Origin: a virus
DNA length: 51,347 bases
UHGV virus genome: UHGV-0208865
Direction: 5' to 3' (one strand)
Positions 27,152 through 44,836 of this stretch are shown piece after piece. The notes beneath the pieces were generated by a model that saw only the letters and a list, made by a program, of their open reading frames with translations, was not told the origin of the DNA and searched no databases. Numbering within the stretch: position 1 is the first letter of the stretch; each line of letters starts with the position of its first letter. Made by a program: the position numbers and the translations under genes.

Positions 27152-27440
27152 TCTTCGTCCACTCCTTGTATTGCTCTTCCTTCATGACATGAAGGTTCCA
27201 CGCATAGTAGTGAAGGTCATCTAGTGGCGACTCGATGAGTACCAAAAAGTCGCCTTCCTCAATGATCTTCCACATCTCACGTGTCCCGAAGAGCGGGATA
27301 CACGAAGTGCGGCGCATGATCTTATTCGAGCCAGAATTAACCTCCCATCGTGTCTTACTAATCTTGTCCCGCTCAATGTCGGTAAACATAAAATTGGGTG
27401 GAACCTGAAGGACCAGCTTATTCTTTCCCACGATGAACAC
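27144..27440 (-). CDS. Hypothetical protein (start uncertain)
   Basis: ORF track. Confidence 0.3.
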   Translation of the reverse strand: MFIVGKNKLVLQVPPNFMFTDIERDKISKTRWEVNSGSNKIMRRTSCIPLFGTREMWKIIEEGDFLVLIESPLDDLHYYAWNLHVMKEEQYKEWTKNE

Positions 27441-27825
27441 CCTTCGACAGGCCGCTCAGGAGGGCAGTCGCCTCGCTCGAATTACGGTAGTCACCCAGAT
27501 AGACGACCTCCACGATCTCAGGGCAAGTCGAGATAAGGTGAGCACAACCCTGGCATGGGTAGTGAGTCACGTAAAGCGTGTACTCGCTCCCGTGTTCTGT
27601 CATCTTCCTAATCGCGTTACGTTCCGCGTGAACAGTGTTCACACAGTGGTTGTCCACAATCCGGTGCCCGCCCGTGTCGCACGGCTCAAGGCCGTGCGGT
27701 GTCTCGTTGAACGCGCTCGACACCACCTGACCTGTCGCACGATCAACGATCACGCAACCCACATGGGCACGGTCGCACCGTGACTTAGCGGCCTCATCCC
27801 GCGCTGCCTTGATGTACTCTCTCAT
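27418..27825 (-). CDS. dCMP (deoxycytidylate) deaminase
   Basis: Zinc-binding motifs HAERNAI and PCQGCA. Confidence 0.75.
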   Translation of the reverse strand: MREYIKAARDEAAKSRCDRAHVGCVIVDRATGQVVSSAFNETPHGLEPCDTGGHRIVDNHCVNTVHAERNAIRKMTEHGSEYTLYVTHYPCQGCAHLISTCPEIVEVVYLGDYRNSSEATALLSGLSKGVHRGKE

Positions 27826-34082: not shown

Positions 34083-34241
34083 TTAGAACCCCCGCATATA
34101 ATCAATTCCGATAATGGCACACAAACCACATATAAACGCGCTAAACATACTTAAAAAACAAAGTATGTTAGTTTTCGCCATAGTACCCGCATAAACAAAC
34201 CAGGTCATAGCCATAATACCCAGTAGGATAACCACCAACAT
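34083..34241 (-). CDS. Small hydrophobic membrane peptide (52 aa)
   Basis: Hand-translated MLVVILLGIMAMTWFVYAGTMAKTNILCFLSMFSAFICGLCAIIGIDYMRGF. RBS CAGAAAGTGAGTAACAAAATG. Confidence 0.35.
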   Translation of the reverse strand: MLVVILLGIMAMTWFVYAGTMAKTNILCFLSMFSAFICGLCAIIGIDYMRGF

Positions 34242-34245
34242 TTTG

Positions 34246-34784: not shown

Positions 34785-34881
34785 GTTTGTGTCTCACTTT
34801 CTGTCGTTGGTTTGTAGGCTTTGTGCCTATGTTTCTAGTGTAGGTTGTTGATCTGTTGTTGTCAAGTTGTCAGAGTGTGTT

Positions 34882-35626: not shown

Positions 35627-35884
35627 TCAGTACTGCCAACCGTCACGGTCGGTATCTGTCGCAAACTCTCGCAGTGTTGCGCCGGTCGGAAAGTAATCGT
35701 CCCACGCTTCCATATCGCGCGCGATACGTTCCATCTCACGGCGTTCACGTGCCCTAATACGCTTTGAGATATCGCGGCGCGCCTTAGTGTAGGGGGAGTG
35801 TTCGCGGGCGAACTGCGTGGGATGCCACGCCGCCCCGCGCGCTTCCTTGACGTGCCAAGGGTCAGTCTTGAAAGTGTGTGCCAT
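35627..35884 (-). CDS. Small basic protein (Arg-rich, possibly nucleic-acid binding)
   Basis: RRDISKRIRARERREMERIARDMEAWDD. Confidence 0.4.
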   Translation of the reverse strand: MAHTFKTDPWHVKEARGAAWHPTQFAREHSPYTKARRDISKRIRARERREMERIARDMEAWDDYFPTGATLREFATDTDRDGWQY

Positions 35885-35995
35885 TGTCTTTGCCTTTCGG
35901 TTTGTGCAACACCTCGGTTGTGTCGCATCGTTCCCCCGGTTGGGATTGAACCAACCTTGACACTCACCATTAAGCGGGGGAAGTTGAAGACTTAA

Positions 35996-36289
35996 TTAGT
36001 CTTCGTACGTGTAATGCACAACTTCGCGCGGGCCGGTGTAATAGGCGAACTTGTAAACGGTGCGCTCGCTTCCATCGGGACTAGGGACAGTCACACTAAC
36101 GGGCAGATATCCGTGCATGGTGTATGCGTAACCGCGCCGTTCGCCGGGAAACTTTGCATCGAAAAAGTTGCGCAGGTTGTGAGGCTTAAAATCTTCCTCG
36201 GTTTCACCGTGTCGGACCTTTGACCAACCACCGCTAGGGGTACGGTACTCGGTCCAACGGGTAACAATTGCGTGTGTCGTGTCTCGCAT
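35996..36289 (-). CDS. Hypothetical protein
   Basis: ORF track. Confidence 0.4.
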   Translation of the reverse strand: MRDTTHAIVTRWTEYRTPSGGWSKVRHGETEEDFKPHNLRNFFDAKFPGERRGYAYTMHGYLPVSVTVPSPDGSERTVYKFAYYTGPREVVHYTYED

Positions 36290-36321
36290 TTTTGTTGTCT
36301 TTCTGTGTTGTGTTGTGTTGT

Positions 36322-36534
36322 TTAGTAGAGTTCGCGGGTATCCGCGTCGATACCTAGGGGCATCTCTGCAAGGTCGCTAGGACCGACAAAGTAGAGATGC
36401 CCATCCACGAGCGCGCGCCAAACGTGTGTTGCCCAACGCGGGGCAAAGATAACGTCTTCGCCTACGTATAAGGTTTCGGCGTGTGCCCATGCCGACAGGG
36501 CGCGGGCTTCGTCATCAATAGTAAGTCGGATCAT
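36322..36534 (-). CDS. Hypothetical protein (70 aa; trimmed to ATG 36534)
   Basis: RBS GCCGAAAGGTGAAACTAATG. Confidence 0.35.
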   Translation of the reverse strand: MIRLTIDDEARALSAWAHAETLYVGEDVIFAPRWATHVWRALVDGHLYFVGPSDLAEMPLGIDADTRELY

Positions 36535-36621
36535 TAGTTTCACCTTTCGGCTTGTCTTTGTTGATACTCTCAGTTTAGCGGGTTGCTGGCTTGTTGTCAA
36601 CCCGCTAAACTGTGTTGTCCG

Positions 36622-36909
36622 TCACTTGTTGATTGACTTGGAAAGCGCGGTCAGTGCTGCAACAGCGGTGTTAGCCAAGTCACGGTCAAGGTGTCCGCGC
36701 AGCGATTCATCGTTGATCTTGCTCGACAGGTCGATCATATCGTGGAACAAAGCGTTAATACACTTTGCAGTGCGTCGTTCTTCGTGTTCGCGCCTAATCG
36801 CGCCTTTGCGTGCGCTATCGACAGGCAGAAAATAGCGTTCCTGGTAGTCGCGTTCGTATTCTGCGAGGCGTGCCATCGTTTCGTAATCACACGCGAACGA
36901 GGTTCTCAT
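36622..36909 (-). CDS. Hypothetical protein, first gene of the leftward early operon
   Basis: RBS CCGAAAGGAAGCCGAAAA-ATG. Promoter-like elements lie immediately upstream. Confidence 0.45.
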   Translation of the reverse strand: MRTSFACDYETMARLAEYERDYQERYFLPVDSARKGAIRREHEERRTAKCINALFHDMIDLSSKINDESLRGHLDRDLANTAVAALTALSKSINK

Positions 36910-36951
36910 TTTTCGGCTTCCTTTCGGGTTGTTTCGTTTGCCGATACTTAA

Positions 36952-36980
36952 AGATTAGTGGGTAGGGCGTACGTTGTCAA
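36952..36980 (-). promoter_or_regulatory. Leftward promoter candidate (TTGACA-17-TAATCT) with a conserved leader
   Basis: Minus-strand TTGACA (+ strand 36975-36980) and TAATCT (+ strand 36952-36957) with a 17-nt spacer. The leader CTAATCTTTAAGTATCGGCAAACGAAACAACC is repeated at 33639-33715. Confidence 0.45.
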
Positions 36981-37054
36981 CATGAAAACATGTGATTAGG
37001 GACACATTGTTTAATGGTGGTTGTTAGCGGGTATGGAATAAGGAACGCGTGCGC

Positions 37055-37083
37055 GTAATAGCACCTTAGTTATGAGTTGTCAA
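37055..37083 (-). promoter_or_regulatory. Second leftward promoter candidate (TTGACA-17-TATTAC)
   Basis: Minus-strand TTGACA at + strand 37078-37083 and TATTAC at + strand 37055-37060. Confidence 0.4.
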
Positions 37084-37508
37084 TAGCTAGGCTATGTGTT
37101 GTGTGCGACAGGCTGTTAGGGCTGTTTGTTAGCAAGGTGAGAGCGGCGGCCCTGGCAGTTTATACCCTGTAGGGAGTGAATGTCAAGGTTTTAGTGTGTG
37201 TCGTTGGTTATATTGTGGGGCGTGTCAAGACAGCGACAGGGCCGGGAGGGATAACTAGACATCTCATAATGTGGATAGTTTTTGTGTTCGTGTTGACTTT
37301 AGAGTGAGAGTATGTTACTCGCATGGGCATAGCGTGGCGATTAGGTGGGTTGGTGGGTGTGGGTAGTGTGTAGGACAGCGTTTAAGGGGTCTAGAAGCGT
37401 GTCTGAGCGTGTTTTATAGTGTGGGTGGTAGTGGGTAGCCTTGAGTGGGTGTTAGGGCGTTGTAGGGGGCGTAGCGTAAATGTCATGACAATTCAATAGA
37501 GGTAGGTA

Positions 37509-37540
37509 TGCATATTATGCACTCGGTTGCATAATATGCA
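37509..37540. repeat. Perfect 13-bp inverted repeat TGCATATTATGCA-ctcggt-TGCATAATATGCA (operator/cruciform candidate)
   Basis: Read directly from the sequence. Confidence 0.7.
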
Positions 37541-37543
37541 GTC

Positions 37544-37574
37544 CTCGCGCGTACGCAGCTACGCGAGCGTTTTT
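37544..37574 (+). terminator. GC hairpin plus T5, a terminator-like element for rightward transcription
   Basis: CTCGCGCGTA-cgcagc-TACGCGAG-cg-TTTTT. Confidence 0.4.
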
Positions 37575-37731
37575 AACTTTATTAATATATAAATAATAAT
37601 GATAATATAATAATAAAAAAATTAAGTATAGATATAGATAGTTACTAATAATGTTTATTAATGGTTGATATTACACGTTAATAAATTAGTTATTGTGTGT
37701 AAATAATATTCTTAGTACGTAGAAAAAATAG
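37575..37731. other. AT-rich island (about 160 bp, over 85% A+T) in a genome that looks GC-rich on inspection; candidate DNA unwinding element
   Basis: ttattaatatataaataataatgataatataataataaaaaaattaagtatagatatagatag... Confidence 0.6.
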
Positions 37732-37808
37732 GGGGGACTACGCGAGGCGAAAATTAGGGGCCGTTGGTTGTGTTGGTTGCTTGCAGTTGATGCTAGTTCG
37801 TTGCAGTT

Positions 37809-37826
37809 GGTTGGTTGGTTGGTTGG
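37809..37826 (+). repeat. (GGTT)4GG tract, a two-tetrad G-quadruplex motif
   Basis: ggttggttggttggttgg. Confidence 0.5.
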
Positions 37827-37855
37827 TAAGGCAGGGGTAAGCTAGGTTAGGTGAG

Positions 37856-37918
37856 GGGTAGTTAAGTTAGGTAAGCCTAAGTTAGGGGGAGGGTAGTTAA
37901 GTTAGGTATACCTAAGTT
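37856..37918. repeat. Two 28-bp direct repeats (35-bp period), each containing a TTAGGTA..CCTAA palindrome. Copy 2 has the perfect palindrome TTAGGTATACCTAA. Iteron/operator candidates.
   Basis: gggtagttaagttaggtaagcctaagtt / gggtagttaagttaggtatacctaagtt. Confidence 0.6.
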
Positions 37919-38218
37919 TTGTTAATGGGTTTGGGTCCGGGGTTAGGGTGGGTATGTTGTGATGCGCGTCTCAAAATTGGGTATGGGTTTGGGTCGGGTA
38001 TGCGTTAGGGGATATGGGGCCGATGGTTGGTAGGACGCGGGGAGTGTGCTTGACAGGCGGGTGATTCGGGGCGTTTTTGAGGCAACTAAAAAATCAAATG
38101 CTTAGTAAGTGTAAAGATGGAGTGGGGTGTCATACCAGTTTGTGTATCTGGGATGTACTGGCACATACCCGTTTGTGCATACCCCTCAATAGAGTGGGTC
38201 AGATCACACGCTATCTTG

Positions 38219-38247
38219 TTGACTTTAACCGTCTATCCTTCTATGCT
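38219..38247 (+). promoter_or_regulatory. Rightward promoter candidate (TTGACT-17-TATGCT) for the operon starting at 38281
   Basis: TTGACT 38219-38224, TATGCT 38242-38247. Upstream direct repeats CATACC(A/C)GTTTGTG at 38133 and 38164. Confidence 0.5.
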
Positions 38248-38280
38248 TAAAACATTAACACCAAACGCAAAGGAGAAATC

Positions 38281-38520
38281 ATGGACGACCTACTGAACAC
38301 TAAGTTTTGTATCTCAACAGGCCATTGGATCACTTACGAGTGCCTACTTGATACCGGCACCGTCGTACACTTGCAAAAGCCCAGCAATAAAGTATGGATG
38401 CTCAACCACGACAAGCAGTGGGTGAACTGCAATGGTGAAAGCATCACAATCGAAGATATGCTGCAACGCATTGAACAACCCAACCAGGTTGTCGAAGTTA
38501 TCTACAGCCCTCACGTCTAA
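38281..38520 (+). CDS. Hypothetical protein
   Basis: RBS CAAAGGAGAAATC-ATG. Confidence 0.5.
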   Translation: MDDLLNTKFCISTGHWITYECLLDTGTVVHLQKPSNKVWMLNHDKQWVNCNGESITIEDMLQRIEQPNQVVEVIYSPHV

Positions 38521-44172: not shown

Positions 44173-44193
44173 CACGCATCACTTAGTATGGTG

Positions 44194-44223
44194 TTGACAG
44201 CTTAGAAACGGTGACTCTATACT
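44194..44223 (+). promoter_or_regulatory. Promoter candidate TTGACA-18-TATACT upstream of the tRNA cluster
   Basis: Read directly from the sequence. Confidence 0.5.
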
Positions 44224-44298: not shown

Positions 44299-44383
44299 CC
44301 CCTTGTGGCGGAATAGGCAGACGCGCTCGACTCAAAATCGAGTTCCGAAAGGAGTGTGAGTTCGATTCTCACCGAGGGGACCA
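44299..44383 (+). tRNA. tRNA-Leu (anticodon CAA), type II with a long variable arm, CCA encoded
   Basis: Hand fold. Acceptor CCCCTTG/CGAGGGG, anticodon stem CTCGA/TCGAG with loop CTCAAAA, T-arm GTGAG-TTCGATT-CTCAC, 3' ACCA. Confidence 0.65.
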
Positions 44384-44547
44384 CCAAGCACCGGACGATG
44401 CTGGATGATTAGGCCATAGCCGCCTGCCGCTCTGATCAAGCGGACGTGCCGGTTGCCGTGACGGGGGTCACGTGCGGGGTAGCACCCTAGGACTGACAAT
44501 TTTTGTGTGATGGTTTTTGTTTCGTCAGTCAACAGCACCCCTTCTAA

Positions 44548-44620
44548 CGGAATGTAGCGCAGTAGGTAGCGCACCTGGTTTGGGACCAGGGGGTCGTGAG
44601 TTCGAGTCTCACCATTCCGA
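44548..44620 (+). tRNA. tRNA-Pro (anticodon TGG)
   Basis: Hand fold. Acceptor CGGAATG/CATTCCG, D-arm GCGC-agtaggta-GCGC, anticodon stem CCTGG/CCAGG with loop TTTGGGA, T-arm GTGAG-TTCGAGT-CTCAC. Confidence 0.7.
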
Positions 44621-44677
44621 CGTTGCACATGTGTAACACCTAGTTCCCAGGTGTCCTCCGGGACTACCTGGGTTTAA

Positions 44678-44748
44678 TCCCAGATAGTGTAATGGTAGCA
44701 TGGCAGGTTTTGGCCCTGTCGGACTAGGTTCGAGTCCTAGTCTGGGAG
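44678..44748 (+). tRNA. tRNA-Gln (anticodon TTG) candidate
   Basis: Hand fold. Acceptor TCCCAGA/TCTGGGA, anticodon stem GCAGG/CCTGT with loop TTTTGGC, T-arm CTAGG-TTCGAGT-CCTAG. The D-stem is weak. Confidence 0.5.
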
Positions 44749-44836
44749 CGCTTGACGATGAGGTTGCTCGATAGCACAAAGTGTCTCGACCAAGACACCC
44801 TCATCGAACGGCTGGGTTGCCCTGGTCAGGTAACAA

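Follow-up and report, generated by a model that had tools for sequence, protein, structure and literature searches.

The virus genome UHGV-0208865 was analysed as one stretch of 51,347 nucleotides (hereafter the window; positions are counted from its first letter), and the subject of this text is the non-coding control region at 36952-38280, a candidate origin of replication. The window is a phage-like genome of approx. 51 kb with 51.7% GC, and about 91% of it is coding according to a greedy gene call over its whole length. The genes form a leftward block at 20.5-36.9 kb and a rightward block that runs from 38.3 kb via the end of the window to about 20 kb. The control region occupies the sole point of divergence of the two blocks, between the genes 36622-36909 (minus strand) and 38281-38520 (plus strand). 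Its 1329 bp are the longest stretch of the whole window without an open reading frame (ORF) of at least 60 amino acids on either strand. An earlier reading made from the letters alone (the sequence-only reading) had described it as the only ORF-free stretch above 1 kb, placed between divergent operons; this was correct, since the next longest such stretch measures 296 bp and no other gap exceeds 300 bp. The following elements were distinguished in the region.

36952-36996, minus strand: P_L, predicted promoter of the leftward early operon, with -10 TAATCT (36952-36957), -35 TTGACA (36975-36980) and an upstream ATCACA (36991-36996)
37055-37083, minus strand: P_L2, predicted second tandem leftward promoter, with -35 TTGACA (37078-37083), a 17-nt spacer and TGC-TATTAC, resembling an extended -10 (37055-37063)
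37157-37186, minus strand: P_L3, predicted promoter, TTGACA-18-TAAACT, with 10 of 12 matches in the promoter scan
37251-37495, plus strand: left G-rich arm, a near gap-free array of G-rich blocks conserved at 90% or above; blocks are a CACAATGTGGATAG-like one (37262-37278), GT.TG.TA..CGC (37311-37323), GTTTAAGGGGTC (37380-37391) and GTAAATG.CA.GACAATT (37475-37493)
37496-37575, no strand assigned: palindrome module of variable sequence: 13-bp palindromes, then a GC hairpin and its T-run
37575-37725, no strand assigned: AT island, candidate DNA unwinding element, with the lowest GC and the least stable duplex in the window
37729-37750, plus strand: TAGGGGG(G)-ACTACGCGAGGCG, a conserved block bordering the island on the right
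37776-37827, plus strand: iteron-like repeats phased by 10 bp (..GCAGTTGAT / GCTAGTTCGT / TGCAGTTGGT..), then (GTTG)5.5
37836-37926, no strand assigned: 35-bp repeats with the palindromes TTAGGTAAGCCTAA (37867-37880) and TTAGGTATACCTAA (37902-37915), then the conserved TTTTGTTA
37927-38047, plus strand: distal part of the right G-rich arm, with G-quadruplex (G4) motifs at 37927-37952 and 37979-37998
38047-38137, plus strand: conserved blocks GCTTGACAG (38047-38056), TAAAAAATCAAATGCTTA (38087-38105) and GGGGTGTCATACC (38124-38137)
38203-38280, plus strand: P_R, predicted promoter of the rightward operon, with ATCACA (38203-38208), -35 TTGACT (38219-38224) and -10 TATGCT (38242-38247)

The strand asymmetry of the region was computed together with its duplex stability. 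All of the ten most skewed 500-bp segments of the 51 kb fell at 36.9-38.3 kb, with GC skews of 0.40-0.60 against a window-wide standard deviation (SD) of 0.12. On the plus strand the left arm has a G fraction of 0.35 and a C fraction of 0.13, the right arm 0.41 and 0.10, and compared with the window average this strand is richer in T and G and poorer in C. The 150 bp from 37576 contain 15.3% GC, which is the minimum of the window. The nearest-neighbour stability of the AT island is -0.945 kcal/mol per step, 7 SD off the window mean (-1.432, SD 0.068), and that of the next least stable site is -1.22; the energy parameters are reportedly those of SantaLucia 1998 and Sugimoto 1995. Thus the plus strand that had been judged by eye to be G+T-rich and C-poor proved to carry the strongest skew in the window (G about 35-41%, C 10-13%), extreme and by no means unremarkable once computed, and the island that had been described as A+T-rich has indeed the lowest GC and the least stable duplex. 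The second least stable duplex, which is also the second lowest in GC, was seen at 34130-34245, a 116-bp intergenic gap in the leftward operon, upstream of a TTGAC-N18-TACACT promoter at 34837-34865.

Since a DNA search gave no relatives of the region, these were recovered by means of the flanking proteins and a 22-nt invariant motif. The sample so obtained consists of 16 distinct versions of the region from human metagenomes, with pairwise identities of 58-97%; the relatives are contigs of about 50 kb and none of them is integrated in a bacterial genome. The region is 1231-1409 bp long in all 16, and all have the same layout, two arms with G skew on the same strand around an A+T-rich centre. 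The skew of the left arm is 0.38-0.55 and that of the right arm 0.45-0.67, while the AT island measures 122-190 bp with 22-27% GC. More than a dozen short blocks are conserved at 90% or above and keep a fixed spacing. Of 13 diverse relatives, 11 have a left arm of 177-180 nt, and in the remaining two it measures 167 and 188 nt. When the columns were sorted by conservation, the GC skew was 0.61-0.63 in those conserved at 70% or above, 0.29 at 50-70% and 0.19 below 50%. Since the skew is strongest in the conserved columns, it points to selection and not to mutational drift; judged from these columns, the G enrichment belongs to selected positions and the region is not a neutral mutational footprint.

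The AT island itself occurs in at least three unrelated sequence alleles among the relatives, and the modules of the region reassort between them: 95% of the island is common to the window and the relative L007, against only 14% of 37125-37250, and in L006 the reverse was found. The composition of the island is therefore kept while its sequence is not, which fits a composition-dependent role.

No ORF was conserved intact across the 16 relatives. Their longest ORFs are of 51-87 amino acids at differing positions and on differing strands (shuffled sequences give 82 +/- 24 amino acids), and the ORFs that the region has in the window contain stops or frameshifts in relatives. A mini-ORF of 40 codons at 37209-37330 on the minus strand, beginning MPMRVTYSHSKVNTNTKTIHIMRC..., keeps its ATG and first seven codons in 14 of the 16. 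It was rejected as a gene, since several relatives have it truncated or frameshifted, no Shine-Dalgarno sequence precedes it, and its two conserved ends are conserved even where they are out of frame; its conservation is probably at the DNA level. The sequence-only reading had looked to close relatives, to the computed skew and to small conserved genes for signs against it, and none was found: the region is present and its architecture is kept in 16 of 16.

Left of the island, the single perfect 13-bp palindrome that had been noticed turned out to be one of two, TGCATATTATGCA at 37509-37521 and TGCATAATATGCA at 37528-37540. In the same module of relatives there are unrelated palindromes, namely GTTAAC-N3-GTTAAC, CGTCAGAGTGACG and ATACCCC..GGGGTAT. 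The GC hairpin with a T-run, also described before, is present at 37548-37575 on the plus strand only, but it exists in only about half of the relatives; a universal hairpin or terminator left of the island was rejected, with fold z-scores between -4.7 and +0.8 and TTTT after the hairpin in about 8 of 16. A 9-nt direct repeat, CTACGCGAG, flanks the AT island at 37560-37568 and 37739-37747. Since its left copy is the 3' arm of the GC hairpin, the 5' arm of this hairpin could instead pair across the island.

Right of the island, the tandem repeats finder (TRF) reported a period of 10 in 4.8 copies (37776-37821) and a period of 4 in 5.5 copies, the (GTTG)5.5 at 37806-37827. AGTT recurs at an exact spacing of 10 nt, two to four times, in 14 of the 16 relatives. 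The 28-bp direct repeats of the sequence-only reading belong to a real array, the unit of which is however a 35-bp tandem repeat (37836-37918, 2.4 copies, 85% identical) with an exact core of 18 nt. TTAGG-N4-CCTAA is present in 14 of 16 relatives, its arms being conserved and its central 4 nt variable. Further right, CATACC-N-GTTTGTG is directly repeated at 38131 and 38164, and no -10 was found at a fixed distance from TTGACA in the blocks at 38047-38137 of the relatives. AATCAAATGCTTA, which follows an A-tract in the invariant TAAAAAATCAAATGCTTA (38087-38105), fits WATCAANNNNTTR, which we take to be the consensus of the enterobacterial integration host factor (IHF); the host is presumably actinobacterial. 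A variant of this TAAAAAATCAAATGCTTA occurs in the L019 group. An array of one oligomer, Chi-like or other, was rejected, because most of the enriched k-mers derive from blocks in common and from the GTTGGTTG and AAGTTAGG repeats. Nor do the retained cytosines mark T7-type primase sites, as no sequence context dominates among them and GTC makes up 9%.

Both edges of the region are occupied by promoter-like sequences. The exact pattern TTGAC-N18-TANNCT was found at P_L (36952-36980, minus strand) and P_R (38219-38247, plus strand), as well as at three intergenic sites oriented with the genes, 36572-36600 (minus), 34837-34865 (minus) and 41473 (plus). Across the 16 relatives the -35 is invariant and the -10 keeps TAnnnT while the spacer varies, which is the classic signature of a promoter. 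P_L and P_R have ATCACA-N8-TGTTGAC in common; the conserved block at P_L extends to 37012, and P_R, nearly invariant in 13 of 16 relatives, is followed by a ribosome-binding site (RBS), AAGGAG (38270-38275), and the start codon at 38281. In P_L2 the TTGACA is found in 15 and GTGCTAT in all 16 relatives, with a variable spacer. P_L3 lies inside an insertion (37125-37250) that has 94% and 85% identity in L006 and L056 and 7-21% in most others; a similar cassette occupies another position in L057. On these patterns, P_L and P_R are predicted to be canonical, divergent sigma-70-type early promoters, probably accompanied by one to three further tandem leftward ones. The promoter-like hexamers that had been reported in both directions were confirmed, with seven sites against 3.2 +/- 2.0 in shuffled sequences.

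For neither G-rich arm could a conserved rightward promoter be established. The rightward candidate at 37293-37321 (TTGACT/TTGCAT-17-TA..CG) adjoins the invariant GT.TG.TA..CGC block and has a non-consensus -10, and no conserved promoter was detected along the right border of the AT island. Two related sites were observed outside the region. Between the first two leftward genes, a perfect hairpin with a 15-bp stem, CAGTTTAGCGGGTTG...CAACCCGCTAAACTG (36573-36614), overlaps a promoter-like TTGACA-N17-TAAACT and may act in attenuation, in processing or as an internal promoter. At 44178-44198, about 100 bp upstream of a tRNA cluster, ATCACT-N8-TGTTGAC differs from the element of P_L and P_R by one mismatch.

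The feature is thus real, conserved and unusual. Tentatively, we favour reading it as a divergent early-promoter hub that would also carry the lytic origin, with the AT island as its unwinding element. According to the twin-domain model, negative supercoils accumulate in the DNA between two divergent transcription units. P_L and P_R would act in this way on the gap, and the AT island, midway between the promoters, would melt. The phased 10-bp repeats, the TTAGG-N4-CCTAA palindromes and the G-rich blocks may be binding sites for phage or host proteins, which would position the opening and load primase and helicase. The G-rich blocks all share one strand and it is mainly the conserved positions that are enriched in G, so the element would have an orientation in which it is read. 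What is read could be oriented duplex sites, a displaced single strand of DNA or a G-rich transcript paired with its template, the last as proposed for the origin transcript of the Lactococcus phage c2. An AT-rich element adjoining direct repeats, one mark of iteron origins such as lambda ori, P1 oriR and those of theta plasmids, was found here (37575-37725 next to 37776-37827 and 37836-37918), with the phasing in 14 of 16 relatives. Other points in favour of an origin are the replisome genes of the phage itself, a cumulative GC skew that turns at about 36 kb, the syntenic gap of the distant relative Amigo and the precedent of the Ceduovirus origin. What stands of the origin proposed by the sequence-only reading is therefore the non-coding, conserved layout of a melting core with phased repeats and palindromes between divergent promoters, from which we infer the origin function.

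Several observations weigh against this interpretation. DnaA boxes (TTGTCCACA / TTATCCACA) are not enriched, with 2 one-mismatch hits in 1.37 kb (1.46 per kb in the region, 0.82 per kb window-wide), one of which overlaps the -35 of P_L. Among 20 neighbouring proteins no initiator-like (Rep, O or RepA-like) match was obtained in Pfam or PHROG, though a novel initiator is possible, and no neighbouring gene family was found to co-vary with the palindrome modules. The cumulative GC skew has its minimum at about 36 kb and its maximum at about 20 kb, but these are the divergence and convergence points of the gene blocks, so that both extremes are confounded with gene orientation. Those extra promoters that are well supported all face leftward; their RNA would be C-rich and thus of the wrong polarity for an R-loop, and a G-rich primer transcript like that of c2 is left without an identified promoter. 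Finally, palindromes and an AT-rich island that lie between divergent promoters might just as well serve regulation alone. With no more than moderate confidence, we consider the origin to be the best available reading and the purely regulatory hub a serious rival.

That rival, which we hold to be somewhat unlikely, is a transcriptional hub with no origin, in which early promoter arrays and operator palindromes would set the timing from early to late expression. The AT island would be an UP-element, curved DNA or a platform for a nucleoid protein (e.g. Lsr2-like), and the variable palindromes would be operators for phage regulators of differing specificity. The conserved promoters at both edges and the tandem P_L2 and P_L3 agree with this, the upstream element common to P_L and P_R suggests a common regulator, and the palindromes have conserved arms with variable centres. 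The module left of the island, moreover, is swapped between unrelated palindromes as in immunity regions. However, about 800 bp (37190-38050) lie beyond any recognisable promoter, and promoter control needs neither an island of 150-180 bp with about 80% A+T nor 1 kb of G enrichment on one strand. In the ten nearest small proteins no helix-turn-helix (HTH) or other DNA-binding domain was found, and, as noted, no gene family follows the palindrome type.

It is rather doubtful that the region instead encodes one or two unstructured, G/U-rich non-coding RNAs (ncRNAs) transcribed rightward, the first from about 37328 to a terminator at 37575 and the second from the right edge of the island to P_R. 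Such RNAs could serve as a primer or R-loop former (like PE1-T of c2 or RNA II of ColE1) or as a sponge for protein or RNA. The same strand is G-rich in both arms of all 16 relatives, the candidate promoter pair at 37293-37321 adjoins an invariant block, and the T-run hairpin is present on the plus strand only; in addition, the strand of the c2 origin transcript is likewise G-skewed, and RNA-based origins exist in actinophages (PMC7157519). On the other hand, the -10 of the candidate lacks the final T and its -35 is unconserved, the island edge has no conserved promoter, and about half of the relatives have a weak terminator or none. The RNA origin of the actinophage Alma has no comparable skew. 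In Rfam 15, cmscan at E up to 1 gave only chance-level matches. The fold z-scores on the G-rich strand are ordinary (-1.1 and -1.7), and RNAalifold gave 0 consensus pairs in the left arm and 19 pairs without any compensatory change in the right one. A structured RNA in either arm was rejected on these results, and the ncRNA locus of the sequence-only reading was not supported, inasmuch as neither an Rfam family nor a conserved RNA secondary structure was found in either arm.

R-loop or G4 priming was also proposed in the same reading. The two canonical G4 motifs of the window are both in the region (37927-37952, 37979-37998), but G3+N1-7 motifs occur in 7 of the 16 relatives and in 9 there is none, so that a conserved G4 was rejected. 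The energy of RNA:DNA minus that of DNA:DNA, computed for a rightward transcript, is raised in favour of the hybrid in the right arm, about 3.5 SD below the mean with ranks 4 (37816) and 2 (37973) in the window; rank 1 belongs to a coding site, so such values also occur outside the region, and the left arm deviates by only about 2 SD in the same direction. What stands is a G-rich strand and the right-arm hybrid energy, and what does not is the conservation of the G4 and the uniqueness of the energy; for a rightward promoter there is the candidate at 37293-37321 with its non-consensus -10. An R-loop component is thus possible but unsupported, and the G4 component is not a conserved feature.

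More doubtful still is that both arms and the AT core form one oriented origin of about 1.2 kb, of a kind undescribed in actinophages, in which the G-rich strand would act as displaced single-stranded DNA or in an RNA:DNA hybrid. Opened by supercoiling from the divergent promoters, it could serve unidirectional, strand-specific initiation or the loading of SSB, annealase and primase of the phage. Such an origin would explain why G is kept on one strand on both sides of the island despite the divergent transcription.

An improbable alternative is a site of DNA entry or a DNA end, either an injection pause like the iss of phage T5 or a place near the genome termini or the packaging start. Break points cluster at 35.7-38.5 kb in about 8 of 17 near-complete related metagenome contigs, and two short contigs stop within the region too, the left border of the AT island being the end of one; in the Arthrobacter phage Amigo, the genome of which has terminal repeats, about 5.6-6.5 kb separate the syntenic gap from the right genome end (PMC5513430). 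Yet the terminal repeats of cluster AQ, to which Amigo belongs, are elsewhere and contain genes (PMC5513430). The region has no DnaA-box cluster, and the terminase genes are 15 kb away. The terminal overlaps of about 118-126 nt look like assembler k-mer overlaps and differ in position, and an apparent novel junction at the island in a Logan contig was rejected as an assembly artefact. Local mosaicism together with an A+T content of 85% suffices to account for the contig breaks; strain mosaicism and the A+T-rich stretch probably break the assemblies at 35700-38500, where physical genome ends are possible. A functionless spacer with strand-biased mutation (C-to-T deamination of an exposed strand), or a set of unrecognised small genes, is very improbable, for although the plus strand gains T and G and loses C and the 40-residue minus-strand ORF at 37209-37330 keeps its ATG in 14 of 16, conserved columns have three times the skew of variable ones, over a dozen blocks keep their spacing, the mini-ORF decays as described above and the ORFs are no longer than in shuffled sequences.

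As regards the genome that carries the region, the window encodes a family-A DNA polymerase (PolA), an SNF2 helicase, an AAA_24 annealase-like ATPase and an amidase/choline-binding lysin, and further a primase, SSB, a Cas4-like exonuclease and a dCMP deaminase. The deaminase gene (27418-27825, minus strand), in the replication operon, hints at nucleotide-pool remodelling and has no evident tie to the local C depletion. Three tRNAs were found in the window, clustered at 44299-44749, and none in a scan of the control region. Among GenBank phages no nucleotide match was obtained to the region (near and distant modes) or to the first 25 kb (near mode only). The nearest database proteins are those of Arthrobacter cluster AQ phages (terminase 41%, PolA 36-37% identity), and the structural and replication genes resemble those of Arthrobacter phages; the lysin resembles those of Eggerthella, Propionibacterium and Bifidobacterium phages, and bin labels of Atopobium and Actinomyces are attached to whole-phage contigs. 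The phage looks to be an uncultured oral actinobacterial phage with its own replisome genes, and it looks lytic; only contigs of about 50 kb and no integrated copy were found.

To our knowledge, lytic replication origins are essentially unmapped in actinobacteriophages. The replication systems of these phages in general are not well characterised (PMC7157519). The region is a precise, conserved and experimentally tractable origin candidate in an abundant clade of uncultured human oral phages. It also poses a puzzle, in that selection keeps about 1 kb of G enrichment on one strand across an AT core, which simple transcription polarity cannot explain. If the region is indeed an origin, genetic tools for oral Actinomycetota could be built on it as a replicon, it could confer phage resistance as a Per-type decoy, and initiation driven by supercoiling or R-loops could be studied on it.

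Among known systems, ColE1 RNA II, T4 oriF and oriG, the primary origin of T7 and the mitochondrial CSB II represent origins primed by transcription or R-loops. The region resembles them in its promoters, its easily melted AT-rich segment and its G-rich non-template strand, and differs in that the G4 is unconserved, no promoter of the right polarity was found and the hybrid advantage is only moderate. The parABS mycobacteriophages of cluster A (Alma, LadyBird, RedRock) have RNA-based prophage origins of 400-500 bp without an ORF, which are required for replication (PMC7157519). These are also non-coding actinophage segments and set a precedent for protein-free origins; however, they maintain an extrachromosomal prophage and adjoin parABS, while the phage studied here looks lytic, and the Alma origin has neither skew nor an AT island. 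The iss region of T5 is a repeat-rich, conserved non-coding kilobase (10.1101/866236), but what defines it are paired DnaA boxes and a location in the terminal repeat, and neither was seen here.

In Amigo (cluster AQ, NC_041949) a gap of 985 bp at 52621-53605 occupies the same position, between a long leftward replication operon and rightward small genes. Its GC is likewise below that of its surroundings, and it contains iterons with a period of about 10 bp as well as palindromes. In this gap (L027 16622-17606) we observed at least seven copies, about 10.5 bp apart, of a motif of the type TTTGTAC(C/T)GG / CATTGTA(C/T)CG, and palindromic TTCCACAATGTGGAA pairs that resemble back-to-back DnaA boxes; the published description of cluster AQ does not discuss the gap or these iterons and palindromes (PMC5513430). 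Four DnaA boxes with at most one mismatch were counted in the 985 bp, against 0.36 per kb elsewhere in the locus, and this DnaA-box-like cluster is absent from the region studied here. The Amigo gap further differs in its absolute skew of at most 0.28 and in having no sharp AT island. No sequence homology was found between it and the region, and a common 11-mer, CACAATGTGGA, within the Amigo palindrome TTCCACAATGTGGAA, was rejected as not beyond chance.

By analogy of layout, the closest counterpart appears to be the intergenic origin of the Lactococcus Ceduovirus (c2). It is non-coding, lies between two divergent gene blocks, is flanked by tandem early promoters, and comes in three unrelated sequence types (c2, bIL67, 923) able to drive plasmid replication; a non-coding transcript from its upstream promoter has been implicated in initiation (PMC7150918). 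In a blastn comparison (word size 11) of 36900-38300 with 50,697 phage records no match to these three origin types was found. The present region measures 1.3 kb against 611 bp in c2, and it has a discrete central island of about 85% A+T and a stronger skew (0.4-0.8 against about 0.3). The plus strand of c2 has a skew of -0.07 to -0.37 between EP1 and EP2, where the origin transcript runs leftward and its strand is G-skewed by about 0.3. The G-rich strand of c2 is thus that of a promoter-driven transcript, whereas the recognisable tandem promoters of the region studied here are of opposite polarity; origin activity, too, has been demonstrated for c2 and is predicted here. In both systems, nevertheless, a non-coding region separates divergent blocks (here the leftward one at 20.5-36.9 kb and the rightward one from 38281), and tandem promoters of one block, here the predicted P_L, P_L2 and P_L3, flank a stretch without ORF or RBS. 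In both, several sequence types without similarity are held at the same position, and one strand of it is skewed towards G.

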